Source: Alphaproteobacteria bacterium
GTDB lineage: Bacteria > Pseudomonadota > Alphaproteobacteria > Rs-D84
Length of the DNA: 64,000 bases
Reading direction: 5' to 3'
NCBI GenBank assembly: GCA_017616785.1
Contig: JAFZXK010000005.1
Coordinates: 7,906-71,905, forward strand
The first letter of the stretch is position 1. Every line of letters begins with the position of its first letter. Shown here piece by piece: positions 40,096 through 53,990 of this stretch. The notes beneath the pieces were generated by a model. That model was not told the DNA's origin and ran no database searches. It saw only the letters and a program-made list of their open reading frames with translations. The translations under genes and the position numbers were made by a program.

Positions 40096-41358
40096 ATGGT
40101 CAAAATGCAAGAAAAAAATAACATTAGAACATTATCTTTTGGGTGTCGCCTTAACGCGATGGAATGCGAAAAGATAAAAGATATGTTGGCACCGCACAAA
40201 ATACATGCGGTTATTGTGAATACTTGCGCCGTAACCGCAGAGGCCGAACGCCAATGCGGCCAGGCGGTGCGCAAAATTGCACGCGAAAATCCGGGTGCCA
40301 CGATTTTTGTTACTGGATGCGCCGCGACACGAAACCCAAAACTGTTTGAAAAAATTCCGGGCGCGATTGTTATACCAAATGAAAAAAAGATGGTTTTGGA
40401 CGCCTATTTGGACCAAATACAGCAAAAAAATCGCGGCAATACGCAACTGGAAACAGTTGGTAAATTTGATACAGAAAGCAAACTTTCAAAACAATTTATT
40501 CAAATTCAAAATGGATGCAATCACGATTGCACTTATTGCGTAACGCGTCTTTTGCGGGGGCCGGCGGTGTCGTTTGAATATGATGAAATTTTGAAAAATG
40601 TCCGCGCGGCGACCGAAAATGGTTTTGGCGAAGTCGTCCTTACGGGTGTTGACGCGGCGTCTTATGTTCGGGTTTATGATGGGCGACCGTTTTTGATTTC
40701 CGATTTGTGTCGGCAACTGTTAGATGATGTACCGGACTTGCGGCGGTTGCGCCTTTCGTCCGTTGATCCGGCGGTGCCGGCGATACGCGATATTATTGAA
40801 ATAATGAAGCAAAATGACCGATTTATGCCACACCTGCATCTTTCTATGCAGTCGGGTTCTGACACAATTTTGCACGCGATGCGACGGCGGCATACGGCGG
40901 ACATGGTGCGCGAATTGGTAAAATTGGCGGACGGCAAAGTTAGTTTCAGTTGGGATATAATTTGTGGTTTTCCGGGGGAAACGGACGAATTGTTTAATGA
41001 AACATTGGAATTGGCCCGCGAATTGGGACCAATTCGGATTCATGCCTTTCCTTTTTCACCGCGTCCCGGAACGGTTGCGGCGGAAATGCCAAACCAGGTT
41101 CCATGCAATATCGCACGGGCGCGCGTGCGGCAAATAACAAATGTTGCGAATGAAAACCTGCGTAAATTCATGCTATCCCGGGTTGGCAATGTGTCACGAG
41201 TTTTGGTTGAATCAAATAATATTGCACGAACACCGGACGACATACCGGTTAAAATAGTCGGCGTCCCTATTCCGCCCCGCACAATTTGCGATGTTAAAAT
41301 CACCGGCATTGATGATGCGACCCCAATGTTCTATGCCGATGTGATAATAGGACACTAG
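40096..41358 (+). CDS. mtaB: MiaB/MtaB-family radical SAM methylthiotransferase
   Basis: FGCRLN, NTCAVTAEAE, CNHDCTYC, GFPGET. Confidence 0.88.
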   Translation: MVKMQEKNNIRTLSFGCRLNAMECEKIKDMLAPHKIHAVIVNTCAVTAEAERQCGQAVRKIARENPGATIFVTGCAATRNPKLFEKIPGAIVIPNEKKMVLDAYLDQIQQKNRGNTQLETVGKFDTESKLSKQFIQIQNGCNHDCTYCVTRLLRGPAVSFEYDEILKNVRAATENGFGEVVLTGVDAASYVRVYDGRPFLISDLCRQLLDDVPDLRRLRLSSVDPAVPAIRDIIEIMKQNDRFMPHLHLSMQSGSDTILHAMRRRHTADMVRELVKLADGKVSFSWDIICGFPGETDELFNETLELARELGPIRIHAFPFSPRPGTVAAEMPNQVPCNIARARVRQITNVANENLRKFMLSRVGNVSRVLVESNNIARTPDDIPVKIVGVPIPPRTICDVKITGIDDATPMFYADVIIGH

Positions 41359-42722
41359 TTATTCAAATTCCAAAGCCAACAATATTCCGGGTCATTTTCA
41401 TGACCGGATTCATACCCCGCACAGGTCATTTTGTTTTGCTTGGTTTCCAATGCGGTTATATTCGGAATCGCCGAACCGTTTTCCAGCGCGCCGGTGGTTG
41501 AATCATAACTTGCGGCACTTGCCACCGCAATACCCGAACCCAAAGCACCAGTTGAATCATAGTTCGCAAGTGTGTTTGCCGTGCCGGTCGGTGCCGAATT
41601 TTGTATTTCCGTATGTAACGCACTATACACATCCTTTAACAATTCCAACGATACCAACGCGGATTTAACCTGTGCCTCGGTAAGGCCTTGACTGGTTGCA
41701 AACATGGCGGATGCCGTTGTGCCGTCAACATAGTTCATAACCCGCTGTGCACCAGATTTTGCGGTTAATGCCAAATCTTTACCAGCGGTCGTATAAACCC
41801 ATGACGGGTTTCCGGCGGCATTCAACACAACCGCCTGATTCCCCTTTGGCGCGGCATCCCCGGTGGATTTTTCCGATAAGTTACTTTGTTTGGCATTCAA
41901 CGCCTCCGCCACGGCACGAACGGTTGGAACAGAATTTTCGGTATTGTAATAACTACCAGTAAATAAACTCAAATCTCCTTCAAGTTCAAGCATAGTTGCG
42001 TAATCCAAAATACCAATTTGATTACCCTCTAATGTTTGTGTGGTTGAATCATATACAACCAAACTCGGAACATACAGGTCATTTTCAGTGCCGTCGCCAT
42101 CATAAAACAAAACATTTCCACTGGTGATTTTTGGTTGCCAATAGTTATCGAGTTCATAGAAAACAGCACTAGCCGTTGGTATAGATGTATCATCTCCGGT
42201 TTCTTCAAGCGTCAACCCTTGATCATATAAAAAACCCGATGTTACAATTTGCATTTTACCAATTTCACCATCCGTGTCCCCATCAGTAAGGACACTGTAA
42301 TAATCGTCCTCGGTTGCCGGAATTTCGTCTTGCTTGGTATCGACGTATGCTTTGGATGCGACGGTTTTTTGTGCGGCGGGGTCCGGGTCGGTTGCGAATG
42401 CCGGGATAGTGATAATCAGCGACAAAAGAACAAGCACCTTTGTCATGGCGGGCTTGGTCCGCCATAGGGTTGTTTTTATTGTCATTCCGGGCTTGGTCCG
42501 GAACCCTATTGCGGCTCGGGGGCCGCAATGACAAAAAGATTGGTGTTCGTTGCGTAATCCCCGCGTATCGGTTTGTAATTCCCCTTCTTTCCAAGAAGGG
42601 GTGCGGCATAGCATGCCGCGGGGTAGTTTATTTACCCATACCCCCCGGCGGTTCCGCCGGACCCCTTTCCCCAGGAAAGGGGAATTCATTTGACGATTGA
42701 AAAATTTGAAAAGTGTTGTCAT
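41355..42722 (-). CDS. Exported fibrous protein with SKxYVD/KQ neck-like repeats; palindromic elements in the N-terminal coding region
   Basis: SD aagaggg before the ATG at 42722; signal h-region VLVLLSLIITIPAFA; TVASKAYVDTKQ. Confidence 0.75.
   Translation of the reverse strand: MTTLFKFFNRQMNSPFLGKGVRRNRRGVWVNKLPRGMLCRTPSWKEGELQTDTRGLRNEHQSFCHCGPRAAIGFRTKPGMTIKTTLWRTKPAMTKVLVLLSLIITIPAFATDPDPAAQKTVASKAYVDTKQDEIPATEDDYYSVLTDGDTDGEIGKMQIVTSGFLYDQGLTLEETGDDTSIPTASAVFYELDNYWQPKITSGNVLFYDGDGTENDLYVPSLVVYDSTTQTLEGNQIGILDYATMLELEGDLSLFTGSYYNTENSVPTVRAVAEALNAKQSNLSEKSTGDAAPKGNQAVVLNAAGNPSWVYTTAGKDLALTAKSGAQRVMNYVDGTTASAMFATSQGLTEAQVKSALVSLELLKDVYSALHTEIQNSAPTGTANTLANYDSTGALGSGIAVASAASYDSTTGALENGSAIPNITALETKQNKMTCAGYESGHENDPEYCWLWNLNN
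42441..42686. repeat. Cluster of REP/RPE-like palindromic elements (42441-42465, 42480-42533, 42577-42686)
   Basis: tgtcatt...aatgaca and aattcccct...aggggaatt terminal inverted repeats with internal hairpins. Confidence 0.8.
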
Positions 42723-42750
42723 TGTGTTCCCTCTTTTTTGTTTGTTGTGT

Positions 42751-42957
42751 AAAAAAACCGTCAAATAGGACGGTCGGGGTGTTGAGAAATCATATAAGAC
42801 GATGACCCCCATGGACTTTATATATACTCCATGGGCACCCCGACAACCGGGGTATCAAGATTTCGGCACAAAACATCGGAAATTTTGCGGATTACGACAT
42901 AATGTGCCGGTCTTATATGGGCTTCTCAGGGCCCCGAACCAGATTCCCGTCTGATTC
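42751..42957 (-). ncRNA. Structured leader RNA, copy A (c4/ash-like attenuator candidate)
   Basis: P0 gaatcaga/tctggttc; P1 cgggg-tgagaa-catataagac / gtcttatatg-ttctca-ccccg; three inner hairpins; terminator accgtc/gacggt+T6; promoter TTGCCC-18-TAGCAT at 42964-42993. Confidence 0.7.
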
Positions 42958-43056
42958 AGGACTATGCTATCACGAATCGTTATTTTAGGGCAAGTGTTTT
43001 TTTAATGGGTTTTCTTTGCTATATGAAAACGCTCTGTTTCCCGTCATAATTTGTTT

Positions 43057-43467
43057 ATGAGCCGCGTAAATGTGATTCCAGTATCCGAACTTTCAGACCA
43101 GCATTTAATTGCCGAATATCATGAATTGCCACGCGTGATTAAACAAAAAATAGATATTTCGAACGCGCCGCGGTGCTTTGTTTTGGGTGCGGGTCATATG
43201 CGGTGGGCGCGCAAGCACTGGAAATTTACCTGTGACCGGTTTTGTGAAATCTGTGCCGAAATGGAATATCGCGGATTCAGGGTGAACTTTGCCCCGGAAA
43301 GTTTGCGTGAATATTTGGGCGCGTGTCCGACGGGCGGCGAATATGTTGTAACGGATGCCGACATAGAAAAAAACCGCGAACGAATTCGCGAAAAGTATAA
43401 CAAAAAACCGGAATTTTATCGTTGGACCCGACGGGAAAAACCCGGATGGCTGGGGAAGAGTGGGTAG
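43057..43467 (+). CDS. Pyrimidine-dimer DNA glycosylase (T4 endonuclease V / DenV family)
   Basis: MSRVNVIPVSELSDQHLIAEYHELPRV matches the T4 DenV N-terminus pattern; FVLGAGHM; RGF. Confidence 0.88.
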   Translation: MSRVNVIPVSELSDQHLIAEYHELPRVIKQKIDISNAPRCFVLGAGHMRWARKHWKFTCDRFCEICAEMEYRGFRVNFAPESLREYLGACPTGGEYVVTDADIEKNRERIREKYNKKPEFYRWTRREKPGWLGKSG

Positions 43468-43553
43468 TGTTAGTGATTAGTGTTAGTGGGGTGTAAAAAG
43501 AAGAGATATAAAACAACTGGCGCATTCGCGCCAGTTTCACTAACCACTTACAC
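43459..43553. repeat. GTTAGTG short repeats in inverted arrangement around a hairpin
   Basis: gtagtgttagtgattagtgttagtg ... aactggcgc-attc-gcgccagtt ... cactaaccacttacact. Confidence 0.6.
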
Positions 43554-44008
43554 TATCCTTTCATCAACCTTGCACGGGATTTTTCCCATTCGCGGCGCTT
43601 TATCGTTTCACGCTTGTCCGCACGGTTTTTACCATGGCCGATACCAAGCAAGACCTTTAACCGCCCACGATTATTAAAATACATTTTCAGCGGATAAATT
43701 GTTGCACCACGGTCATTCAATTTACCAATCATGCGATTTATTTGCGCCCTGTGCAGCAACAATCGACGCGGTCGGCGTTCATCAAAGTTCGTAATGCGCG
43801 CCGCCGTGGGTAATTTCTGAATTTCCACACCCGCAAGGTATAAATTCGTCCCGCGCCGCTGTACAAACCCGTCCACAATTGTGACCAGGCCATAACGCAG
43901 CGATTTAACTTCGGCCCCCGTTAATTCAATACCCGCCTCTATCGTGTCTTCGGTAACATAACAGAACCGCGCTTTGCGGTTTTCAGAAACAGCACCAAAT
44001 TTTATCAT
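43553..44008 (-). CDS. smpB: SsrA-binding protein
   Basis: ENRKARF, EAGIELTGAEVKSLR, RRLLLHR, DKRETIKRREW. Confidence 0.95.
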   Translation of the reverse strand: MIKFGAVSENRKARFCYVTEDTIEAGIELTGAEVKSLRYGLVTIVDGFVQRRGTNLYLAGVEIQKLPTAARITNFDERRPRRLLLHRAQINRMIGKLNDRGATIYPLKMYFNNRGRLKVLLGIGHGKNRADKRETIKRREWEKSRARLMKG

Positions 44009-44119
44009 ACTGCGTGGCATAATGTGTGATTCTATATCAAAAAACGACAAAAGCCAAATAATTTTTGCATTTAGTGCGTATTTGGTGTATAATTATATCA
44101 TAAACCAAAAGGATAAAGT

Positions 44120-44548
44120 ATGACGCCAGAAGAAATAGCGCTTGATTTTGTTACACGGTTTGAAGAGCAAATAAAAAAAACATTGGGGGTTCACACTTTT
44201 GATGACAGAAGGGCCGCCGGGCATATTGCACAATTTGTGTATGATAATCCGGTGGTGATGGATTATTATGATAATATAACTGTCAATCCACGTGTTGTTA
44301 CGATGCTTGTTGCTTCGTTACACGATGTGTTGGTCCCAGAAAGGATTCGCGAAGAACGGCGCCGCGTCGATTATATAAACAAAGTCCTAAAACAGAAAAA
44401 ATCCGGCAAAATGCCCGCGCGTTTGTATGATGATTTTATGCGCGTTTATTTTTCAGGAACAGTTGATACCGAAGATTTGACACGGGGACCCAATGTTGAT
44501 TTTAACTCGCTGGCATTAAAGCGTGCTTCGGGAATTTTTAATAGATAA
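44120..44548 (+). CDS. Hypothetical protein, paralog of 44886..45254 (ends FNR)
   Basis: SD aaagga; MTxxExAxxFVxxxEExIKxxLGxxTFD shared. Confidence 0.8.
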   Translation: MTPEEIALDFVTRFEEQIKKTLGVHTFDDRRAAGHIAQFVYDNPVVMDYYDNITVNPRVVTMLVASLHDVLVPERIREERRRVDYINKVLKQKKSGKMPARLYDDFMRVYFSGTVDTEDLTRGPNVDFNSLALKRASGIFNR

Positions 44549-44570
44549 CATGGTTTCGGACACGGAAATA

Positions 44571-44653
44571 CTATAACTCTATCCTTGGATAGAGTTTTTT
44601 TACATTTTCCATAACTATATCACACATTTTTTCAAATGGAACATTTTTTATTT
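44571..44653 (-). pseudogene. Displaced second allele of the tatD 3' end (direct repeat of 45272-45354)
   Basis: Encodes ...KNVPFEKMCDIVMENVKKLYPRIEL* versus LYPKIEF* in tatD; contains the aactctatc/gatagagtt hairpin plus T-run. Confidence 0.9.
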
Positions 44654-44689
44654 GTTGCAATGTTTCAGTATTTGTTACACAATTCGCGT

Positions 44690-44860
44690 GGGTATAGAGG
44701 TTTCTGTATCTTGGGCGTGACAACCCATCGGATGTGTCGGCGACGACATAAAAAATCCCAACATAGGTTGGGTGTCTGTGAATATATTGAATAAACAGAG
44801 CAATTCATCCGATTGTTGTCAACCCCCAACCGCTAACTTTATTCGGCGGTTGATTTAGTT
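44690..44860 (+). ncRNA. Structured leader RNA, copy B
   Basis: P0 ggtataga/tctgtatc; P1 ttggg-tgacaac-atcggatg / catccgat-gttgtca-cccaa; three inner hairpins; aaccgc/gcggtt hairpin; promoter TTGCAA-17-CACAAT from 44655. Confidence 0.7.
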
Positions 44861-44885
44861 TAACAAACAACAAAAAGGATAAAAA

Positions 44886-45254
44886 ATGACACTACAAGAA
44901 TTGGCGACAAATTTCGTTAATAAATATGAAGAAGAAATAAAGCGACAATTGGGTATAAAAACATTTGATAAAAAGGTCGCAATAGAATGTGTTGCGGACT
45001 TTTTTGAACGCGAAACCGCAGCATTGATTAATAACGCCATCAATAGAGATGCTTTTTCATCCAAGAATGGTATGATTAAGGATATTATTGGTTCCATGTA
45101 TGAGCAACTAGTGCCGGCACACATTCGTAAATTACATGAGGCCACCGCAAAAATAGAAGGACAAAACTTGGGCAAGGTCTTGACACAGATAGTAAAAACT
45201 GCCACAAAAGCAGCCATAGAAAACGCCGATAATACCATAGTTGTTGGAAGGTAA
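44886..45254 (+). CDS. Hypothetical protein, paralog of 44120..44548 (ends VGR)
   Basis: SD aaagga; shared N-terminal pattern and LVPxxIR. Confidence 0.8.
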   Translation: MTLQELATNFVNKYEEEIKRQLGIKTFDKKVAIECVADFFERETAALINNAINRDAFSSKNGMIKDIIGSMYEQLVPAHIRKLHEATAKIEGQNLGKVLTQIVKTATKAAIENADNTIVVGR

Positions 45255-45271
45255 AATTAAATTTTACCGAT

Positions 45272-46039
45272 TCAAAACTCTATCTTTGGATAGAGTTTTT
45301 TTACATTTTCCATAACTATATCACACATTTTTTCAAAAGGAACATTTTTTATTTCCGCCAAAACACGCGCCGTGTCAACCACATAGGCCGGTTCGCAAAT
45401 TTTGCCGCGGTGTGGCACGGGTGCACAATACGGGCTATCGGTTTCGACAATGATACGGTCAATTGGGATACGCGCAAATGTGTCGCGAATTTCGCCCGCA
45501 TTCTTAAAGGTTAAAATGCCACTTGCCGAAAAAAAGTATCCGCAATCCAACATTTTTTTGGCCAAATCATAACTTGATGTAAAGCAATGCATAACGCCAT
45601 AGATGTCCGAATAACGCGACAGAATTTCAAATGTATCGCTTTCCGCGTCACGCGTATGAATCGCGACCGGCAGCCCCGTACGCCACGCCATGTCCAGTTG
45701 CCTTTCGAACAATTCGATTTGCGCATTCCGCGTATCCGCGCCCATTTCGTGGTAATCAAGCCCTATTTCCCCAACCGCCAATACTTTCGGATTCGCCAAG
45801 ATTTCATCCGTAATGTAATCCGACGGATTTGTTCCCGCGTGTTCGGGGTGAATTCCAATTGTTGCAAAAATATTATCGCGTTCGTTTGCCAATTTCACCG
45901 CGGGTAAAATATCAACCGGGTCCGCCGTCGGGCAAATTATATATTTCACACCGGCCGCGGTTGCGCGCGCAATTACCGCATCCATGCCACCAACGGACGA
46001 AAAATCATAGGTTAAATGGCAATGTGTATCTATAAGCAT
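45272..46039 (-). CDS. tatD: TatD family DNase
   Basis: IDTHCHL, GIHP, GEIGLDY, IHTRDA, MHCF, ETDSPY. Confidence 0.95.
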   Translation of the reverse strand: MLIDTHCHLTYDFSSVGGMDAVIARATAAGVKYIICPTADPVDILPAVKLANERDNIFATIGIHPEHAGTNPSDYITDEILANPKVLAVGEIGLDYHEMGADTRNAQIELFERQLDMAWRTGLPVAIHTRDAESDTFEILSRYSDIYGVMHCFTSSYDLAKKMLDCGYFFSASGILTFKNAGEIRDTFARIPIDRIIVETDSPYCAPVPHRGKICEPAYVVDTARVLAEIKNVPFEKMCDIVMENVKKLYPKIEF

Positions 46040-46932
46040 TTTTGTATTTCCAATATAATCTTGAACAATGAGATTTCTGGTTCCAAATTCACGCGGTTTA
46101 TGTCCGCAATCGCCTTTGTTGCGACCGGGTAAAGTTCCGCCAAATTAAAGTGTGCAATCACATCAAGCAATATTCCATAAAGTTCCGGCGATGGCGCAAT
46201 TTGCCGCGCGATATTCATTGCATCCGACTGTGTTGCGTGCCGATTCGTTACAAATTCAACAACGCGTTCATATATCGCGTCGCCCCCAGATTGCTTTAGG
46301 TTCGCAATGCGTCCAAAAGACCCGTTGGCAAGGCGCAATGTTTCATCATCAACTATTTCATCCGGCATAAACCGCGCACAAAGGGTTCGCAAATCAGAAA
46401 TCGACAGCGGTCGCATCTTTTCCACGCGGGCACGCGAACGCACGGTTGGCAAAACACTTGATAATTGATGCGTAACCAACAGAAATAATGTTTTTGCCGG
46501 CGGTTCTTCCAATAACTTTAATATCGCATTCGCCGCAGCAGTTGTAAGTGCATCCACAGAATCAATCAACACAACACGCCACGCGCCCGACATTGACGAA
46601 AGTTGCATCTTTTCAATTGTTGCACGCACAGTATAGACCGAAATCGATTTTCCATCGGATTTAACGCGGCCGTCCTTGTCAATATTCCGGTCCATGTCGA
46701 TAATAAAAAAGTCACCTATATTACCATAAACCATGCGCGCAATCTGATAGGCAAGCGTTGCTTTGCCAATGCCACGCGGACCGCACAGCATCCACACTGG
46801 GTGCAACGGATGGGCGTCGCGATTTTGCCACGCATCCATAAACGCACGCAATGTTGCATCATGTCCAATCGTATTATTATTGTCCATCGGATGCGGAAAT
46901 TCGTAAACGGGCGCATTTGATTTCCGTGCCAT
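46030..46932 (-). CDS. holB: DNA polymerase III delta' subunit
   Basis: GPRGIGKATLA, AANAILKLLEEPP, LPTVRSR; start MARKS at 46932. Confidence 0.88.
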   Translation of the reverse strand: MARKSNAPVYEFPHPMDNNNTIGHDATLRAFMDAWQNRDAHPLHPVWMLCGPRGIGKATLAYQIARMVYGNIGDFFIIDMDRNIDKDGRVKSDGKSISVYTVRATIEKMQLSSMSGAWRVVLIDSVDALTTAAANAILKLLEEPPAKTLFLLVTHQLSSVLPTVRSRARVEKMRPLSISDLRTLCARFMPDEIVDDETLRLANGSFGRIANLKQSGGDAIYERVVEFVTNRHATQSDAMNIARQIAPSPELYGILLDVIAHFNLAELYPVATKAIADINRVNLEPEISLFKIILEIQKCL

Positions 46933-46933
46933 T

Positions 46934-48109
46934 TTAACGCCCCATAAGCATAGTAACAATATTTCGCCAAGCGCGCGCAAGGAAACGAACGCGCCCGACA
47001 TCAGATTTGGCGATTAAATTTGTTCGTGCGATAACATCGCCGTTGCGTTCGGCAATAACCTCGCCCAATATATCGCCGGCGCGAATTGGCGCGGGCATTG
47101 GGTCGGTATATCGCGCAAGCACGCGAACACCGGATAGGCCAACATTCTTTGGCACCGTAATCGCAAGTGTTTGGCCAACAGTTCCCATTACCGTATTGCT
47201 GCGTCCATACCAGGTCGGCACCGCGGTTACATCTTCGCCTGGGCGATAGAAAACCTTTGTGGTTGTTGTGGAAAAACCGTGCGACAGTAAACCCTTCATT
47301 TCCGTAGCCAATGCATCATGCCCCTTGCCATAAAAGCCATTTATAACGCCGATTAGACGCCGGCCACCGGACGTGGCACTTGCCACCATACCATATCCGC
47401 CCTTGTCCGTATGCCCGGTCTTAAGGCCGTCCGCACCCGACATTATGAACAGCAATTTATTATAATTCACCGTATGCGTTTTGCCCCAATCGCGACACCA
47501 ATCGGTTTTGTATTCGCCGAACTCAAAACGCTTGGTCGCGAACATTGGATACAAATCGGGATAATCAGAAATTATATGATATGCCAATGTCGCAAGTTCC
47601 CGACTTGTCATCAAGTTTTTATCGTTGGGCAAACCACTCGCATTCCCAAAGGTCGATAGCGGCATGCCGATCGAACGCGCCTTGGCCGTCATTAAATCAG
47701 TAAACTTTTCTTCCGTTTCGGCAAGTTTTTCCGCAACAACGACCGACGCATCACCACCCGACAGGACAATAAGGCCCAAAATCAAATCGCGCACAGATAT
47801 ATCCTGGCCCGCCGACAAGCAAATCTTGCTTGCCGGATACCAAAGCGGATTTTGATAGTCCGCATTTCTGCCAACCGGGAAACGGTCGTCCAAAGAAACC
47901 CGACCATCCTTGACCGCGTCAAACAAAACCGTCAGCGTCATCAGTTTTAACATTGACGACGGCGGCATAAGTTCATCCGCGGCAATCGATACAATTTCCG
48001 CCCCCGAATCATAGTCGATTAAAAAGGCGGATTTTGCCTTGGTCTTAAAATCTGCAAAAGCCGGCGCGGCGCAAAGAATCAGTAAAAGTGCGAAAATTTT
48101 TTGTTTCAT
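46934..48109 (-). CDS. dacA: D-alanyl-D-alanine carboxypeptidase
   Basis: SMLK (SxxK), SGGDAS, LKTGHT, C-terminal PBP5 domain. Confidence 0.9.
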   Translation of the reverse strand: MKQKIFALLLILCAAPAFADFKTKAKSAFLIDYDSGAEIVSIAADELMPPSSMLKLMTLTVLFDAVKDGRVSLDDRFPVGRNADYQNPLWYPASKICLSAGQDISVRDLILGLIVLSGGDASVVVAEKLAETEEKFTDLMTAKARSIGMPLSTFGNASGLPNDKNLMTSRELATLAYHIISDYPDLYPMFATKRFEFGEYKTDWCRDWGKTHTVNYNKLLFIMSGADGLKTGHTDKGGYGMVASATSGGRRLIGVINGFYGKGHDALATEMKGLLSHGFSTTTTKVFYRPGEDVTAVPTWYGRSNTVMGTVGQTLAITVPKNVGLSGVRVLARYTDPMPAPIRAGDILGEVIAERNGDVIARTNLIAKSDVGRVRFLARAWRNIVTMLMGR

Positions 48110-48152
48110 GATGTATGTATCATAACAATATATATCACCTTTTCAAATGATT

Positions 48153-48398
48153 TTTTAATTTGATTTTTGTCGCGCGTGGGGATAAAATGTTTCGGTGCGA
48201 AATCAAAGGGGGCCGGCATGTTTGATACAGAAAAATTAAAATCTTTTTCTTGGATAAATGTTGGAAACCCCGATCACGATGATTTTGAAAAACTGCAAGA
48301 TGAATACAAGATTGACGAAGATACAATATCTGATATTTTAGACCCGGACGAACAACCGCGCGAAGAATTTTTTTGAACATACTGTATTATATCGCGGA
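48153..48398 (+). pseudogene. Displaced, internally deleted allele of the corA promoter and 5' end
   Basis: 48153-48361 aligns to 50714-50922 (10 mismatches); 48362-48398 aligns to 51106-51143. Confidence 0.92.
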
Positions 48399-49721
48399 TT
48401 GTAACATAGGATTACGAAAGCTCGTTTGTGATTCGTTTGCCCCACCTGCAATTGCGCACTTTGTCGCGCAGTTTTTTATACATGTCGCTAAACTCGCGGT
48501 GTAGGCAGAATACACCCATTTAGATATAGCAGGATCCGTCATTTTACAATAACAATATTTTCCGTTCCCCCCAGACACAAACGAAGTAGAATACGTTTGC
48601 TGAATTTCTAACTGCTTAGAATCCGCAGATATGTTTCCAATCACAGCAGAAGTAGGGACAACCGAGCTACATATTGCCGAACCATTAATTGTAAAGGTCT
48701 TTGTGGAATCAGAAGAATTTATAAAGTCCAGTCGCCAAGTCCCTTTGGAAAGCGAATCCAAAATTCCGGTATTACAAACCTGAGTATTGGTACTAGGAGT
48801 TCCAAAATTTTGGCCACAATATCCAGTTGCAGCGGCATATTGGCCAGCATTATCAACTATGTCTAAATATGATGGGGTGGTCGTTACAAGCCGCACTGTA
48901 TTCTCTAAGCGCCATAATGAACCATTGGAATCTGGAATTCCGTTTTCATCAACCTGCGTAAATTCATGATTTACGGCATCTATTATTGCGTTATTTAATG
49001 TAACAGCATCTATAAAACCCTGATCCGTCTTGTTGGTTGTCGTATATATTGGCGCCGCACCCAGCATCCCACCCTCGCCACCTTCGGCGGCTTGGGTCAT
49101 AACATAGTTTGCCGAACCATTTGATATATATTGTTTTCTATTTACCCCCGTAAGCACCGCACCCGTCGTAGGTATAGTTGTTGATGTTGTATCAGAATAA
49201 TCCCCACTTGTCGCGTTTGGGGTTCCAAGTGTCGCAACAATTCCGCGTGGCGCCCCCAATTGTTCATCAGTTCCCGTTGTTGGGAAGGTTATTGCAGAAT
49301 TTGTCGCAACAGTGATCTTGTCTAATTTTGAATTTATACCGTCGTCAACATATTTCTTTGATGTTGGTATCTTCCTGTCCCCTAGTGCCGCCCATTGTGC
49401 AGTAAGAGTGAGAACCAGTGTATCACGAGTTTTGCAATTAGTATTTGTATATGTGTCCCCAGGTTGCATTATATCGCCACTGGCGGCATATGATGCGCTG
49501 CTGCTGGTAATAAGCCATCCTTCAAAACTATAATCAGATTTTGAACAAGTATTTTCAGCCACAACAAAACTACCCGTGTCGGCATTTGCCGTATGACTTT
49601 CAGGTGCTGGTCCATTTGCACCACTACCACAACTGTATACAACTTTGCACGGACCAGCCGCAAACCCAGGCAAAGATAATAAAATTCCACCAATTACAAG
49701 TAAGAGTTTATTCTGTCTCAT
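48387..49721 (-). CDS. Exported protein: InlB B-repeat-like domain, SKKYVD neck-like region, Cys-rich C-terminal domain
   Basis: Signal peptide; YSFEGW...TLTAQW; IPTSKKYVD; CSS..YCYC..WVY..CIKNCATKC..FR. Confidence 0.75.
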   Translation of the reverse strand: MRQNKLLLVIGGILLSLPGFAAGPCKVVYSCGSGANGPAPESHTANADTGSFVVAENTCSKSDYSFEGWLITSSSASYAASGDIMQPGDTYTNTNCKTRDTLVLTLTAQWAALGDRKIPTSKKYVDDGINSKLDKITVATNSAITFPTTGTDEQLGAPRGIVATLGTPNATSGDYSDTTSTTIPTTGAVLTGVNRKQYISNGSANYVMTQAAEGGEGGMLGAAPIYTTTNKTDQGFIDAVTLNNAIIDAVNHEFTQVDENGIPDSNGSLWRLENTVRLVTTTPSYLDIVDNAGQYAAATGYCGQNFGTPSTNTQVCNTGILDSLSKGTWRLDFINSSDSTKTFTINGSAICSSVVPTSAVIGNISADSKQLEIQQTYSTSFVSGGNGKYCYCKMTDPAISKWVYSAYTASLATCIKNCATKCAIAGGANESQTSFRNPMLQSAI

Positions 49722-49744
49722 CTTCTTCTATCCCCTCTTGTTTA

Positions 49745-50344
49745 TTATGGATTTGTGGTTTGTGGAACATAAACCCCATTCAATTCTTTTACAAGATATG
49801 TCAAACAATGGTCACCATTCGGATCTGTCTGTGCATTATATTCGCCTTCCCAACTATTGCATTCAAGGTGGGCATTAAATCCATTTGCAATCGCTGCATT
49901 AAGGTGCCCTGCCGAAACAAGTGCGTCTGTTTGCCCACTGTATGCCGCATTTGTTTTATATGTTGCACGTGCCGAAACTGTACCCTCAGTTCCAGTATAA
50001 GTGACCACATCACCAGTATTCCCAGCATCAATTTTTTCTTGCTTTAAATTTAAACTTGTGTTTATCCCCCCAGTAGTAACCAATGTTGTTGCTGTGGTAC
50101 TTGTTCCAAGGGTTGTTACAATCTGTCTCGCGCCAGGCGTCGCCCCAGTGGTTGTCGGATGGGTCATAACATAACTGCTCCCAGATGCCCTGCCTGGGAT
50201 TTTATCCTGCTTAGTTTCAACTTGGGTATCCACATAATATTTTGATGCAACGGTTTTTTTATCAGTTCCGGTATCCGAATATGCTGTACCAATAACAACA
50301 ACACATGCCATGACACCACTAAACAGCACGGTTTTTATACTCAT
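49745..50344 (-). CDS. Exported protein with SKYYVD/KQ neck-like repeats
   Basis: SD ggagg; signal peptide; KKTVASKYYVDTQVETKQDKIP, near-identical to the 41355 protein motif. Confidence 0.78.
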   Translation of the reverse strand: MSIKTVLFSGVMACVVVIGTAYSDTGTDKKTVASKYYVDTQVETKQDKIPGRASGSSYVMTHPTTTGATPGARQIVTTLGTSTTATTLVTTGGINTSLNLKQEKIDAGNTGDVVTYTGTEGTVSARATYKTNAAYSGQTDALVSAGHLNAAIANGFNAHLECNSWEGEYNAQTDPNGDHCLTYLVKELNGVYVPQTTNP

Positions 50345-50378
50345 TGCCCTTACCTCCCTTTCTATGATATGCTATGTT

Positions 50379-50595
50379 AAATCAAAATACCGCCAAGAAA
50401 CATGACGGTCGGGCATTTTCAAGGTCATACTCTGAATGACTCTGTGGTATTTGGTAAACCTGTTGTATCCCCACAGATGCCCGACCCACAGGTCAGGCAA
50501 ACGGTGCAAAGCGCTAATGTAATAAAATTCATTGTCAATGCGTTTGCACCGCAGAGTAGAGTCCTTGAAAGACCCAAACCAAACTTCCTTGGTTC
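50379..50595 (-). ncRNA. Structured leader RNA, copy C
   Basis: P0 gaaccaa/ttggttt; P1 ttggg-tttcaagg-tactctg / cagagta-ccttgaaa-cccga; three inner hairpins; accgtca/tggcggt hairpin; promoter TTGACC-18-TAGCAT at 50602-50631. Confidence 0.7.
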
Positions 50596-50778
50596 GCAAT
50601 CATGCTAACAAAAATCATCAAGCTAGGTCAAGTGCTTTTTTAAATCTGTATTTCTAAGGAAATCCCGGCTTCCTGACATTTTGAACACTCTTTTATAAAT
50701 TGTGTCCACACAATTTTAATTTGATTTTTGTCGCGCGTGGGGATAAAATGTTTCGGTGCGAAATCAAAGGGGGTCGGC

Positions 50779-51663
50779 ATGTTTGATACAGAAAAATTAA
50801 AATCTTTTTCTTGGATAAATGTTGCGAACCCTGATCATGATGATTTTGAAAAACTGCAAGATGAATACAAGATTGACGAAGATACAATCTCTGACATTTT
50901 GGACCCTGATGAACAACCGCGCATAGAGGTTGAAGATGATTACAAGGTTATAATTGTCCGCTTTCCCATTGTGAATCGCGAAACTGATACCCAGTGGCAT
51001 ACGGAACCGCTTTCCATTATTTATTCAACCAATCGCGTTATTACTGTGTGTCGCAAACGTTGCGATATATTGGACAAAATTAAACGCGCCGAAAAAACAT
51101 CACGTGAAGAATTTATTTTGAACATAATGTATTATATCGCGGAATCTTATTTGCGTTGTCTAAAGGAATTAAATCGTCGTGTTGTGGAATCCAAGAAAAA
51201 CCTGCAACAACAAATTAGGAAGCGCGAATTGCTGGCATTACTCGATGTGGAAAACAGTTATACTCTTTATATGACGGGGTTAAAGGGCAACCTTTCGGTT
51301 TTGGATAAATTGGAAAAGGTTCGCGGATTTGCAAAAAACGACGAATGCGTGGAACTGATTGAAGATTCGCGTATCGAACTGTCCCAGGGGATTGAGGTCG
51401 TAACCAGTTATACCAAGATGCTAAAATCCATCAAGGAAACATTTGAAAGCGTCATCAATATGGATTCGAACACATATATTAACCGCCTGACCATGTGGAA
51501 CATTATATTAATGTTGCCGACACTGGTTGTGGGGTATTATGGGATGAATGTCGCTCTGCCCTTTGCGGAACATGGCGACACAGGCATCGTTATTTTCGTG
51601 ATTATTATGGCGCTGTTGGTTGGATACGCACTGTTTATATTTGTACGTAAACGCATAATTTAA
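50779..51663 (+). CDS. corA: CorA family Mg2+ transporter
   Basis: ILDPDEQPRIE, PTLVVGYYGMNV (GMN signature), two C-terminal TMs. Confidence 0.93.
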   Translation: MFDTEKLKSFSWINVANPDHDDFEKLQDEYKIDEDTISDILDPDEQPRIEVEDDYKVIIVRFPIVNRETDTQWHTEPLSIIYSTNRVITVCRKRCDILDKIKRAEKTSREEFILNIMYYIAESYLRCLKELNRRVVESKKNLQQQIRKRELLALLDVENSYTLYMTGLKGNLSVLDKLEKVRGFAKNDECVELIEDSRIELSQGIEVVTSYTKMLKSIKETFESVINMDSNTYINRLTMWNIILMLPTLVVGYYGMNVALPFAEHGDTGIVIFVIIMALLVGYALFIFVRKRII

Positions 51664-52301: not shown

Positions 52302-53990
52302 TTATTTACGGCTGTTTTCAATCGCTGCACCAAGAATATCGCCAAGGACGGAACCACTGTCGGCCTCGTTCGCGTATTCTTTGACCGCTTGCTTTTCAAG
52401 TGTAACCTGAAGCGCGCGGATGGACAATTTCACATTGTTCCCTTCCACGGATACCACGGATGCCTCAACCGTGTCGCCAACATGGAACTTGGATGTATCC
52501 TGTTCAGATTTTTCACGCGACAAATCGGTCCGACGGATTGTGCCCTTGATATCATTTGGCAAATCCAAAATCAATTCATCAGGTGTAACTTCGGACACAG
52601 TGCCCGACAAAACCGCACCTTTCTTAATAGATGCCGCGTTGTTGTCCGCGCCCGCCGTCAATTGTTTAATACCCAATGTAACGCGTTCTTTTTCCGGATT
52701 GATGTCCAAGATTTTCGCGGTTACTTCTTGGCCACGGACGAATTTTTTCAATTCTTCTTCGTCCAAACGGTTCCAAGAAAGGTCAGAAATGTGAACCATA
52801 CCGTCCAATTCCGGCGTCAATGCCACGAACAAACCGAATTCGGTTGTATTCTTAATCGGACCGGTAATAACATCGCCAACATTGTGTGTTTCGGCAAATT
52901 GCTTCCACGGATTTGGTTGCAATTGTTTATACCCAAGTGATATGCGGCGTTTTTCTTGGTCAATATCCAAAACCATAACATTGACTTCTTGGCCAACCTG
53001 TAAAACCTTGGACGGATGGATGTTTTTGTTCGTCCATGAAAGTTCAGACATATGGACCAAACCTTCGATATTGTTCCCCAGGTCGATAAACGCACCATAA
53101 TCGGTAACGGATGAAACCTTGCCGGTAACAGTGTCGCCAACGTTGAATGCGCGCGATGCGGTTTCCCATGGGTCTTCTTCCAATTGTTTTGCGCCAAGTG
53201 AAATGCGGTGTGTTTCCGGGTCAAATTGGATAACCTTGACCTTTATCTTTTCACCGACATGCACCAATTCACGCGGATGATTCACGCGTTTCCAAGACAA
53301 ATCGGTTACATGCAACAAACCGTCAATACCACCAAGGTCGATAAACACACCATAATCAGTGATGTTTTTAACCGTACCTTCCAGTACCGCGCCAAGTTCG
53401 ATGTTCTTTAACGCCTCTTTCTGGGCGGCGGCGATTGTATCAGATTGTATCGCGCGACGGGAAACAATTGCGTTTGTGCGCAACGCATCCATTTTCAACA
53501 CGCGGAATTTGTCTTTTAACCCAATCATAGATTTTGCATCGCGGATTGGTTTATGATCAACCTGGCTTGAGGGCATAAATGCGAATACGCCATTGATATC
53601 GACGGTATAGCCACCACGAACCACATCGATAATTGTACCTTCGGGATCTTCGCCCGCGGCAACGATTTTTTCAAGTTCTTTCCATGCCTTTTCGGCGCGT
53701 GCCTTGGCATAGGACAGAACCGCCGTTCCTTCACGCGATTCGTAACGTTCGACGAACACATCAATAATGTCGCCAACGGCCGGCACAGATGCGCCAAATT
53801 CACGCAACGGAACGCGACCTTCGGATTTAAGGCCAACATCAACCAAAACGAAATCGCCACGGATATCTTTGACCGTGCCCTTGGTCGCGTAACCTTGCAA
53901 AGTTTCTTGTTTACCATAGTTTTCATCAAACATTTTGACGAAATCTTCACCCGCGATCGGGTTAAATAAATCTTTGGATAAATCTTTCAT
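52302..53990 (-). CDS. rpsA: 30S ribosomal protein S1
   Basis: Repeated S1 domains (VDVGLKSEG, NITDYGVFIDLGGIDGLLHVTD). Confidence 0.97.
   Translation of the reverse strand: MKDLSKDLFNPIAGEDFVKMFDENYGKQETLQGYATKGTVKDIRGDFVLVDVGLKSEGRVPLREFGASVPAVGDIIDVFVERYESREGTAVLSYAKARAEKAWKELEKIVAAGEDPEGTIIDVVRGGYTVDINGVFAFMPSSQVDHKPIRDAKSMIGLKDKFRVLKMDALRTNAIVSRRAIQSDTIAAAQKEALKNIELGAVLEGTVKNITDYGVFIDLGGIDGLLHVTDLSWKRVNHPRELVHVGEKIKVKVIQFDPETHRISLGAKQLEEDPWETASRAFNVGDTVTGKVSSVTDYGAFIDLGNNIEGLVHMSELSWTNKNIHPSKVLQVGQEVNVMVLDIDQEKRRISLGYKQLQPNPWKQFAETHNVGDVITGPIKNTTEFGLFVALTPELDGMVHISDLSWNRLDEEELKKFVRGQEVTAKILDINPEKERVTLGIKQLTAGADNNAASIKKGAVLSGTVSEVTPDELILDLPNDIKGTIRRTDLSREKSEQDTSKFHVGDTVEASVVSVEGNNVKLSIRALQVTLEKQAVKEYANEADSGSVLGDILGAAIENSRK

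Follow-up and report, generated by a model that had tools for sequence, protein, structure and literature searches.

A stretch of 64,000 nucleotides (nt) from an alphaproteobacterium of the order Rs-D84 (assembly GCA_017616785.1, contig JAFZXK010000005.1, positions 7,906 to 71,905 of the forward strand) carries three structured RNA elements, A, B and C, each of which stands before a gene without a known family. This whole stretch is called the window below; it corresponds to C18:7906-71905 of a genome of 1,060,306 bases in 25 contigs that is 94% complete. The elements belong to a large family of leader RNAs that is uncatalogued in Rfam 15, and that shares the fold and the variable box of the small RNA (sRNA) family sRNA-Xcc1 (RF02221) yet fails its score threshold. 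Between a promoter and the Shine-Dalgarno sequence (SD) and ATG of a gene, the family members hold two mutually exclusive folds, both with covariation, and a predicted terminator. Modelled on these features, each element is probably a cis-acting two-state transcription attenuator that leads its own transcription unit; as an RNA it would be an expanded version of the sRNA-Xcc1 type with fused halves. The parts of the three elements are given here in window positions, with the strand in brackets; R1 is the covariance model described further on.

42964..42993 (-), element A, promoter: -35 TTGCCC at 42993-42988, 18-nt spacer, TG, -10 TAGCAT at 42969-42964; predicted, read from the letters
42749..42960 (-), element A, entire leader RNA (P0, P1a/b/c, P2, P3, P4, terminator); predicted fold, R1 166.9 bits
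42957-42936 (-), A, hairpin P0
42935-42932 with 42779-42776 (-), A, P1a, GGGG with CCCC
42928-42922 with 42789-42783 (-), A, box helix, TGAGAAG with TTTCTCA
42919-42910 with 42800-42791 (-), A, inner arm (P1c); three hairpins lie inside P1
42836..42844 (-), A, P3 3' arm GTCGGGGTG, the putative antiterminator strand, complement of 42773-42781
42773..42781 (-), A, CACCCCGAC, the P1a 3' strand (CCCC) with the start of the terminator 5' arm; would pair alternatively with the P3 3' arm
42751..42775 (-), A, predicted intrinsic terminator with its T tract, hairpin 42775-42756, GACCGTC ... GACGGTT and T7
42765..42844 (-), A, sub-threshold match to RF02221 sRNA-Xcc1, 24.5 bits against a gathering score of 53
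44652..44681 (+), element B, promoter-like site: TTGTTG, 18 nt, TG-n-TACACA (44676-44681), further from consensus than those of A and C
44687..44861 (+), element B, entire leader; predicted fold, R1 75 bits, the most divergent copy
44766..44772 (+), B, P3 3' arm GGTTGGG, complement of CCCAACC at 44825-44831
44825..44831 (+), B, CCCAACC, the P1a 3' strand with the terminator base
44827..44861 (+), B, predicted terminator hairpin CAACCGCT ... GGCGGTTG with a weaker, interrupted T tract
50602..50631 (-), element C, promoter: TTGACC at 50631-50626, 18 nt, TG, TAGCAT at 50607-50602; predicted, read from the letters
50379..50599 (-), element C, entire leader RNA; predicted fold, R1 151.9 bits, layout as in A
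50477..50486 (-), C, P3 3' arm GGTCGGGCAT, a perfect 10-nt complement of 50407-50416
50407..50416 (-), C, ATGCCCGACC, the P1a 3' strand with the terminator base
50399..50486 (-), C, sub-threshold match to RF02221 sRNA-Xcc1, 36.1 bits, E 4.9e-5 in a scan of 236 bases
50379..50410 (-), C, predicted terminator, ACCGTCA ... TGGCGGT with a T-rich tail

Folding of the three elements gave one common structure, in which a 5' hairpin (P0) is followed by a long interrupted helix (P1) with the hairpins P2, P3 and P4 inside it. P1 is built from P1a (GGGG/CCCC), the box helix P1b of 6-7 base pairs (bp) and the inner helix P1c of 8-10 bp. Behind P1 a short joining strand leads to a T-tailed hairpin, and SD and ATG are found 20-35 nt further on. 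The folding energies were -88.4 kcal/mol for A (z = -7.0), -62.6 kcal/mol for B (z = -4.6) and -83.9 kcal/mol for C (z = -5.7), and in none of the three did any of the 200 dinucleotide shuffles fold as well as the real sequence. The initial annotation, made from the letters of this DNA, had ascribed one architecture to the three elements, and both its coordinates and its anatomy were recovered, including the paired boxes tgagaa/ttctca, tgacaac/gttgtca and tttcaagg/ccttgaaa. The sigma70-like promoters that it had assigned to all three are near-consensus in A and C (TTGNCC, 18 nt, TGnTAGCAT), where they end 7-8 nt before P0, whereas that of B is weaker (TTGTTG/TACACA).

Seven additional copies were detected in the same genome by short-word BLAST and nhmmer, B being found at E = 0.0017. 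The ten strong copies thus obtained have one fold. The mean column identity of their alignment is 58%, and nine different boxes occur among them. From these ten the covariance model R1 was built, a step that the initial annotation had proposed together with a search of this genome and its relatives. The model comprises 223 positions and 45 pairs and scored its source copies at 75-195 bits. Two more matches of about 24 bits on contig C2 share the fold, which brings the number of copies in this genome to 12. The one at G000:C2:20317-20504(-) (24.8 bits) is of a B-like subtype in which CCUCCAACC precedes the terminator, and both the repeat and the gene family found behind A recur after it. The other, at G000:C2:39367-39562(-) (24.1 bits), resembles copies of another Rs-D84 family (CUCCCCGCGCC).

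With R1 the family was found in all 36 genomes of the same genus that were searched, with 2 to 37 matches in each, and also in genomes from three further Rs-D84 families. In an even draw of the order, 135 of the 151 genomes, the present one counted in, had matches; their number exceeded 1000, with 150 among the matches listed and 920 more, and as 15 candidates per genome were scored these counts mean at least. By family of the order (f1 to f6) the positive genomes were 116 of 121 in f1, 2 of 4 in f2, 15 of 19 in f3, 0 of 1 in f4, 0 of 2 in f5 and 1 of 3 in f6. A draw of 151 genomes from the class, which includes the present genome and one of the same genus, yielded 12 positive genomes outside the order, several of them of 2-3 Mb, and in the draw from the phylum the matches were confined to the same class (3 of 150 genomes besides the present one). 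The distant alphaproteobacterial copies retain the leader architecture. An exact pattern derived from P2 retrieved 116 stretches from the GTDB species representatives, nearly all in metagenome-assembled genomes from gut or rumen titled Candidatus Enterousia or uncultured Alphaproteobacteria; the two short contigs with other labels are probably mis-binned. Passages of PMC12306168 describe the genomes of the order Rs-D84 as being of about 1 Mb or less and the life of these bacteria as probably partner-dependent. A full leader copy (L184:13239-13456(-), 157.7 bits) was also present on a 14-kb contig of IMG/VR, where a 228-aa orphan gene follows it at the edge of a tail module of the P2 type (baseplate, tail fibre, sheath, tape measure and gpD-like).

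The fold is supported by compensatory changes across the family, and further homologs thus bore out the covariation that the initial annotation had expected. For this an alignment (A7) was made of 101 matches from the present genome, from 29 others in its genus, from four further genera of Rs-D84 and from 33 loci selected by pattern; identical sequences were counted once, which left 100 distinct ones, and P1c, P4a and P4b were added to the model structure after a column-by-column check. The main fold contains 63 pairs in 12 helices, and compensatory changes were seen in 57 of them. Standard pairs filled 92.7% of its cells as compared with 77.5% in shuffles, and its covariation score was 0.428 against 0.178 in shuffles (0 of 500 reached the observed value) and at most 0.085 when the partners were slid. 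The changes are unevenly distributed over the helices. The three central pairs of P1b and the whole of P1c vary nearly freely (for instance CG 38, GC 31, AU 14 and UA 14), while the pairs that flank these variable positions are conserved. So are the internal loops CUG/AAC and GCCC/UGAU, the junction strand GGAAUCAUU, most of P2, P3 (CCCUGACU/GGUCGGGG) and the internal loop UUAUAAAAYA/GAAAR of P4 with its GGG-GNRA-CCC tip, of which the pairs covary. The segment before the terminator is also well conserved. This does not agree with the view of the initial annotation that the elements share little primary sequence; B is the outlier.

Because their free variation sits between conserved motifs, the variable boxes are regarded as ordinary unconstrained helix positions. 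The triplets in them were of 29 kinds in 123 boxes, with UAG 4 times, and showed no codon-like bias. Initially the boxes had been put forward as specificity elements and compared with the exposed box of c4 RNAs. In the elements of the window they are not exposed, since both strands lie in one transcript and pair in cis as the P1b helix, and the free variation of the three central pairs, which is like that of P1c, does not bear out a role in specificity. A lone long-range pair was noticed between columns 51 and 362 of A7 (UA 66, CG 18 and UG 6 of 96). In A these columns are the C/U that follows GGGGC and the base preceding GUCAU, so that the pair would link the P1a/P1b internal loop to the joining strand between P4 and P1. 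Such a pair may reflect a tertiary contact in a P1 that folds back, or belong to another alternative pairing.

Mutual information beyond the main fold, together with inspection, revealed three extra pairings, each of which excludes parts of the main fold. The first is an antiterminator helix, in which the 3' arm of P3 and two further bases (GGUCGGGGAG) are complementary to CUCCCCGACC, a segment that consists of the last two loop bases, the 3' strand of P1a and the first four bases of the terminator. Of its cells 91.9% were paired; shuffles gave 87.2% (0 of 500) and slid partners no more than 62%. Compensatory changes were seen in 7 of its 10 pairs. This CxCCCCGACC segment was the best partner of the P3 3' arm, after its own 5' arm, in 95 of the 96 sequences examined and in all 15 from other orders, and the mean duplex energy was -17.7 kcal/mol for the antiterminator as compared with -13.8 kcal/mol for P3. 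The helix has been exchanged as a whole in other orders (UGGCGGGGGG/CUCCCCGCCA and GAUCGGGGUG/CACCCCGAUC) and in the present genome, with GGUUGGG/CCCAACC in B and GGUCGGGCAU/AUGCCCGACC in C. The second pairing, a 5' hairpin of the form GGGGC-(box)-GCCC, had 92.5% paired cells against 84.2% in shuffles and 30 compensatory cells against 5.8. The open fold shows the variable box as a hairpin loop, and the closed fold pairs both boxes in cis. The third, hairpin B, which joins AAUCA of the strand between P4 and P1 (J4/1) with UGAUU of the P1 3' strand, had 92.2% paired cells, as compared with 89.1% in shuffles and no more than 56% with slid partners, but little variation. A further candidate, a helix of 4 bp that would join the P1a 5' strand to J4/1, was dropped as unsupported, its cells being paired in 78.1% as against 76.4% in shuffles with covariation in a single pair.

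The connection with sRNA-Xcc1 surfaced only in scans of distant homologs or of single elements. At the gathering threshold Rfam reported two tRNAs as the only matches in the whole window, and at E <= 10 positions 42000-51500 gave only two chance-level matches, both outside the elements. In 7 of 10 distant alphaproteobacterial loci, RF02221 matched over its full length below threshold (27.8-42.7 bits), on the same strand and inside the 3' half of the R1 match. The 3' part of the leader, about 85 nt, aligns to the sRNA-Xcc1 model from end to end. In these model alignments the outer helix of 9-10 bp corresponds to the antiterminator helix, since in the open fold a helix of about 9 bp encloses two hairpins. 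The first hairpin, with its AUACAA-type loop, GAA opposite, 3-bp tip and tetraloop, is found again as P4, and the second, small one as J4/1 with UGAUU. As the outer helix and both hairpins correspond, the open leader fold is the curated fold of sRNA-Xcc1, and the family is best seen as an expanded, fused variant of that kind. In both a variable box lies just 5' of the 3' strand of the outer helix, and in sRNA-Xcc1 loci the complement of this box is in an upstream GGGG-box-CCCC hairpin. Both are multi-copy in some genomes and lie directly upstream of a gene.

sRNA-Xcc1 itself, known first from Xanthomonas campestris pv. campestris, was found in 39 of the 151 genomes of the phylum draw, in 24 of them above threshold. 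By inspection and count, the 8 nt that precede the outer-helix 3' strand proved in 24 of 29 genuine loci to be complementary, in 7 or more of 8 bases, to a stretch 26-137 nt upstream (70-137 nt in most cases), which usually lies in the GGGG-box-CCCC hairpin loop. Furthermore, in 10 of 28 loci a terminator-like hairpin after the box hairpin exposes a loop, CCCGUCAG, complementary to the 5' arm of the sRNA. No Rfam family covers this upstream box unit in the loci L205-L234. These loci hold all the parts of the window leaders in a rearranged form: an a-box-a' hairpin, a CCCnGAC segment, the sRNA-Xcc1 module and the complement of the box. The box hairpin belongs there to a separate upstream unit that has its own terminator-like hairpin, whereas in the window leaders it is fused into one transcript with a terminator behind it. 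Among 24 proteins scanned behind sRNA-Xcc1 in other classes, Bro-N was found 3 times, Rha 2 times, P22_AR_C 2 times, AlpA once and a helix-turn-helix (HTH) domain once. According to the passages available, sRNA-Xcc1 precedes symE in the most widespread integron cassette of Xanthomonas (2025 preprint) and the gene of an ORF6N protein in APSE phages, and has seven copies in a Xylella genome (PMC12189769). Near one sRNA-Xcc1 locus of another class two matches to TwoAYGGAY RNA were seen barely above threshold (L210:2372-2494(-) and 2791-2857(+)).

The position of the elements relative to genes was examined over the family. Weak tail matches were removed beforehand, which left 40 of 43, 83 of 85 and 32 of 33 rows in the alignments A4, A5 and A6, and elements with less than 55 nt of upstream DNA were left out of the promoter and tail counts. 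An open reading frame (ORF) on the same strand followed 145 of 155 matches, with a median gap of 18 nt between the end of the model and the start codon. Just upstream a TAnnnT -10 hexamer was present in 136 of 152 elements, in 95 of which it lay 3-4 nt before the start of the model, and a T-rich tail was found in 126 of 152. A terminator hairpin with a U tract is thus located between promoter and start codon, together with a conserved helix that excludes it, as in intrinsic-terminator attenuators in general. A conserved leader peptide was not found: any ORF across the 5' arm of P3 was present in only 45 of 99 sequences, and its length ranged from 9 to 68 codons. The initial proposal of a family of structured, switch-like leader RNAs with their own promoter, an attenuator-type terminator and covarying boxes is upheld, as is its absence from Rfam as such, the nearest match being RF02221 below threshold.

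The family-wide layout and the two exclusive, covarying folds fit a cis-acting attenuator, the working of which may be pictured as follows. In the closed state the 5' and 3' strands would form the long P1 (GGGG/CCCC, box helix and inner helix) around P2, P3 and P4, and the terminator right behind P1 would form and keep the downstream gene off. In the open state the 5' strand would fold on itself as the GGGGC-box-GCCC hairpin and the 3' arm of P3 would exchange its own 5' arm for the CxCCCCGACC segment. Since this segment holds both the 3' end of P1 and the base of the terminator, the latter would be blocked and RNA polymerase would read through into the gene. One transcript would in this way unite the 5' half, which bears the box, with the 3' half, which resembles sRNA-Xcc1, and couple them to a terminator. 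With nearest-neighbour energies the closed fold is 10-14 kcal/mol lower, which suggests that the device is off at equilibrium, and the off state may then be the default in the cell. During synthesis the 5' hairpin would form first and block P1, and the antiterminator strand has a covarying toehold of two bases outside P3. Because of this early hairpin and the toehold, we infer that the choice between the states is probably kinetic or assisted by a factor.

Several observations weigh against this interpretation. The closed state is the more stable one, with a mean gap of 13.6 kcal/mol for the full leader and of 10.3 kcal/mol before the 3' arm of the terminator is made, and the open state came within 3 kcal/mol in only 8 of the 83 usable sequences (18 of the 101 were dropped for having fewer than 7 antiterminator or fewer than 5 terminator pairs). 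P1, with about 18 bp, is unusually long for a switch, so that the open fold may be a mere folding intermediate or a relic. The GGGG-CCCC complementarity of the antiterminator follows in part from the G and C runs in both P1a and P3. As hairpin B and the antiterminator helix vary little, their support by covariation is modest. The alignment A7 was fitted partly to the structure of the main fold, which favours that structure; the covariation signal of the main fold is taken to be real because the slid controls fail and many pair types occur per position. As to the kinship with sRNA-Xcc1, no RF02221 match of the leaders reaches the gathering score of 53 bits (24.5 in A and 36.1 in C), so that by score the leaders fall outside that family. 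RF02221 did not match B at E <= 10 or any of the seven other copies of the genome in a 27.5-kb scan, and in the whole genome there was no match at E <= 0.001. Conversely, R1 gave only noise on 30 bona fide sRNA-Xcc1 loci. Finally, the part of PMC2996969 that deals with sRNA-Xcc1 describes it as an RNA of about 88 nt that acts in trans in Xanthomonas, and not as a leader.

Candidates for a factor or signal that might shift the balance were considered and rejected. Sensing of c-di-GMP, ppGpp or c-di-AMP was set aside, the GGDEF, RelA_SpoT and DAC domains not having been found in this genome (94% complete). Antitermination of the RfaH/LoaP type was dropped, as the genome has only one NusG and no NusG paralog. 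Control by CsrA was likewise abandoned: a CsrA-like stretch was found only below threshold (20.3 bits, cut-off 27) in one large ORF of 562 aa (52302-53990(-) of the window), probably by chance. Ribosome-mediated attenuation is ruled out by the missing conserved leader ORF and a T-box-like codon box by the variety of box triplets and the UAG among them.

Of the other explanations, it is unlikely that the elements are stand-alone genes for trans-acting sRNAs of about 215 nt, which would act by base pairing or by protein binding or titration, with the gene behind being a mere neighbour or fed by leakage. Their own strong predicted promoter and terminator, the closed fold as by far the most stable one and the highly conserved junctions and internal loops, which suit a protein-binding scaffold, agree with this, and what is accessible of PMC2996969 and PMC12189769 presents the nearest catalogued family as an sRNA of about 100 nt on Northern blots with mapped ends and as multi-copy and transcribed in Xylella, respectively. 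However, the same-strand ORF in 145 of 155 cases at a median of 18 nt would leave scant room for a promoter of its own, the variable boxes are buried within P1, and covariation between the terminator base and the P3 arm would be needless in a plain sRNA. A riboswitch for a metabolite or ion, with the four-way junction as aptamer and a ligand that decides on the terminator by holding P1 and P3 in place, would account for conserved nucleotides clustering in junctions and internal loops while the helices covary, and for an expression platform with mutually exclusive helices; many copies before envelope and surface genes also recall second-messenger riboswitches. This is nevertheless improbable. 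No common metabolic theme was apparent in 121 downstream proteins, mostly orphans, the second-messenger domains named above were not found in the genome, P1 is about 18 bp long, the known aptamer families in Rfam gave no match, and the relatives precede phage antirepressor-type genes, where control of RNA by RNA is customary.

The initial annotation had compared the elements with c4 and ash-like RNAs. In the c4 system of P1/P7 and the CI system of P4 a leader is controlled by RNA only, through short complementary boxes, by two exposed loops that act on two sites in the leader. One box varies between systems, and the outcome is premature termination or a block of the gene, with an icd/ant-type antirepressor operon behind. 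If the elements were antisense immunity RNAs of this type, processed from the leader, their exposed boxes would hit a1/b1-like sites and serve as orthogonal addresses, for which the nine different boxes in the ten strong copies, the antirepressor-type genes (Bro-N, Rha, P22) behind sRNA-Xcc1 and the box in the loop of a separate hairpin complementary to the sRNA site (24 of 29 loci) would speak. The second complementary loop in 10 of 28 loci would give two sites, as in c4. Moreover, in a Xylella genome other than the one with seven copies sRNA-Xcc1 is annotated beside C4 and IsrK, as a table in PMC12189769 records. For the window elements we give this reading little credence, about as little as the riboswitch. 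The families C4, c4-2 and c4-a1b1, to which they had been thought to be related, showed no match at E <= 10 in scans of positions 42000-51500, of the single elements and of the 27.5 kb with the seven other copies of the genome; C4-type families were also unmatched at E <= 1 in ten distant loci and at E <= 0.1 in sRNA-Xcc1 loci. Both box strands lie in one RNA and pair in cis, the box varies no more than the adjacent P1c, no icd/ant-type gene was found behind A, B or C, and there was no sign of processing. Membership in the c4 family is therefore discarded, while the logic of the comparison, with paired variable boxes and an ancestry in phage immunity, is in part borne out through sRNA-Xcc1. 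The analogy describes the wider superfamily better than the three cis-paired elements of the window. A dispersed repeat or miniature inverted-repeat transposable element, of which the terminal inverted repeats would mimic a long stem with no RNA function, is close to refuted. There are many copies per genome, with complementary 5' and 3' ends, and a true dispersed repeat adjoins element A, but copies within the genome are only 58% identical per column, the helices substitute in a compensatory way while the loops stay fixed, the orientation and the distance to the downstream start codon are fixed, and every copy includes a promoter and a terminator.

The genes behind the three elements are located as follows.

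41355..42722 (-), gene after A, 455 aa, ATG at 42722; the start of a longer ORF, at 42812, falls within the RNA
44886..45254 (+), gene after B, 122 aa, orphan, ATG at 44886
49745..50344 (-), gene after C, 199 aa, hydrophobic N-terminus, ATG at 50344

None of their proteins had a Pfam or PHROG family. The neighbours in the window are housekeeping genes (SmpB, TatD, DNA polymerase III delta' and PBP5), in agreement with the initial suggestion that the leaders precede accessory or orphan genes that are not of phage origin. Family-wide, 121 of 135 downstream proteins were compared with Pfam (ORFs of less than 60 aa and the two longest proteins were omitted). Most had no Pfam family and the rest had functions in the envelope, at the surface or in DNA modification: family-2 glycosyltransferases (4), outer membrane protein beta-barrels (4), EcoRI-type methylases (3), Listeria-Bacteroides repeats (3) and autotransporters (2), besides single cases of Dcm, an N6/N4 methylase, GT6, GT8, PLD, an acyltransferase, ankyrin, superinfection immunity, trypsin and HTH. 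Bro-N, Rha and P22_AR were absent from the 25 families listed for these 121 proteins. By a crude measure, 94 of 135 downstream proteins had a hydrophobic N-terminus; among long ORFs of the genome the figure was 460 of 900, so that the enrichment is weak, and it is not relied upon.

Some further observations concern individual genes. The ORFs 44120-44548(+) (142 aa) and 44886-45254(+) (122 aa) are tandem paralogs with similar N-termini, and only the latter has a leader, the former having a plain promoter. The proteins behind C (49745-50344(-)) and behind the copy on C3 (L004:1394-2173(-)) have in common an N-terminal KKTVASK-x-YVDT after a signal-like segment; neither matched Pfam or PHROG. Directly after A, at 42600-42700(-) in the 5' end of ORF 41355-42722, lies a GC-rich double hairpin (CCCCTTTCC..GGAAAGGGG; CCGGCGG..CCGCCGG). 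The genome holds 15 or more copies of its core of about 50 nt (C2, C24, C11 six times, C15 twice, C4, C9, C19, C7, C25 and others). It is thus a dispersed repeat like those of the repetitive extragenic palindromic (REP) kind, and it makes the first 40 or so codons of this ORF doubtful.

In the literature on Enterousia, Rs-D84, structured RNAs of microbiomes and alphaproteobacterial riboswitch candidates, a search that did not extend to the supplementary lists of large screens, the leader RNA is undescribed. The words 'RNA' and 'riboswitch' do not occur in the main text of PMC12306168 as available, nor 'Alphaproteobacteria' in that of PMC8040213, the supplementary list of which, with 3161 candidates, could contain the motif. 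The lineage Candidatus Enterousia (Rs-D84) is presented in sections of PMC12306168 as uncultured and presumably partner-dependent, its genomes being smaller than about 1 Mb. One RNA device before up to 37 genes would be the most used regulatory element of such a genome, and the leader family offers a direct handle on the control of envelope and surface genes in Enterousia cells. More than 1000 diverse copies are ample for rigorous work on covariation and structure, and two complete, covarying and mutually exclusive folds are rare outside well-studied riboswitches. An orphan Rfam family present in about a quarter of the sampled genomes of Pseudomonadota (39 of 151) is at the same time tied to a concrete, testable cis or antisense mechanism, and the natural orthogonality of the boxes makes them attractive in practice as a collection of RNA switches that do not interfere with one another.

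As sRNA-Xcc1 loci resemble the two-site antisense logic of c4 and CI, domestication from an RNA of the phage-immunity type is a live reading. Tentatively, and with more doubt than confidence, the family could be a domesticated sRNA-Xcc1 or c4-like immunity switch of which the antisense and target halves were fused, and which has multiplied throughout this order of gut symbionts with reduced genomes as a general on/off controller of accessory envelope and surface genes. If so, the variable box and the inner helix would be private addresses that prevent mispairing among the dozens of near-identical switches in a cell, a matching RNA in trans, from a phage or a partner cell, could open a single switch, and sRNA-Xcc1 would be the target half of a two-part, box-addressed system and not a free-standing sRNA.

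The attenuator reading preferred here can be set against three known systems. Compared with sRNA-Xcc1, the leaders are longer (about 215 nt), with a 5' hairpin, P2 and a P3 in cis, and the long P1 ties the strand of the box hairpin to the 3' half. An intrinsic terminator lies directly behind them, whereas sRNA-Xcc1 loci have a terminator-like hairpin upstream of the module and no terminator between it and the gene. The position of the sRNA-Xcc1 5' end falls 3-6 nt past the P3 5' arm, within a hairpin, and the only evident promoter is about 120 nt upstream. The genes behind are chromosomal accessory genes and not integron cassettes or antirepressor genes, the setting in a mobile element being absent from the window. 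With c4 and CI the leaders share that the element is RNA only, that it has short complementary boxes and that the gene behind is terminated or blocked, and their relatives of the sRNA-Xcc1 type precede antirepressor-type phage genes. They differ from c4 and CI in the fold, in boxes paired in cis within one stable helix, in the built-in intrinsic terminator, in the lack of signs of processing and in the genes controlled, which are not phage immunity genes. The classical terminator/antiterminator leaders, of the trp type or with riboswitch platforms, have the same succession of anti-antiterminator (P3), antiterminator and terminator, with a conserved structured domain upstream of the platform. 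In contrast to these, the family has no conserved leader peptide or match to a known aptamer; it adds a fourth competing pairing, in which the 5' hairpin competes with P1, has a very long P1, and reaches up to 37 matches in a genome of 1 Mb.

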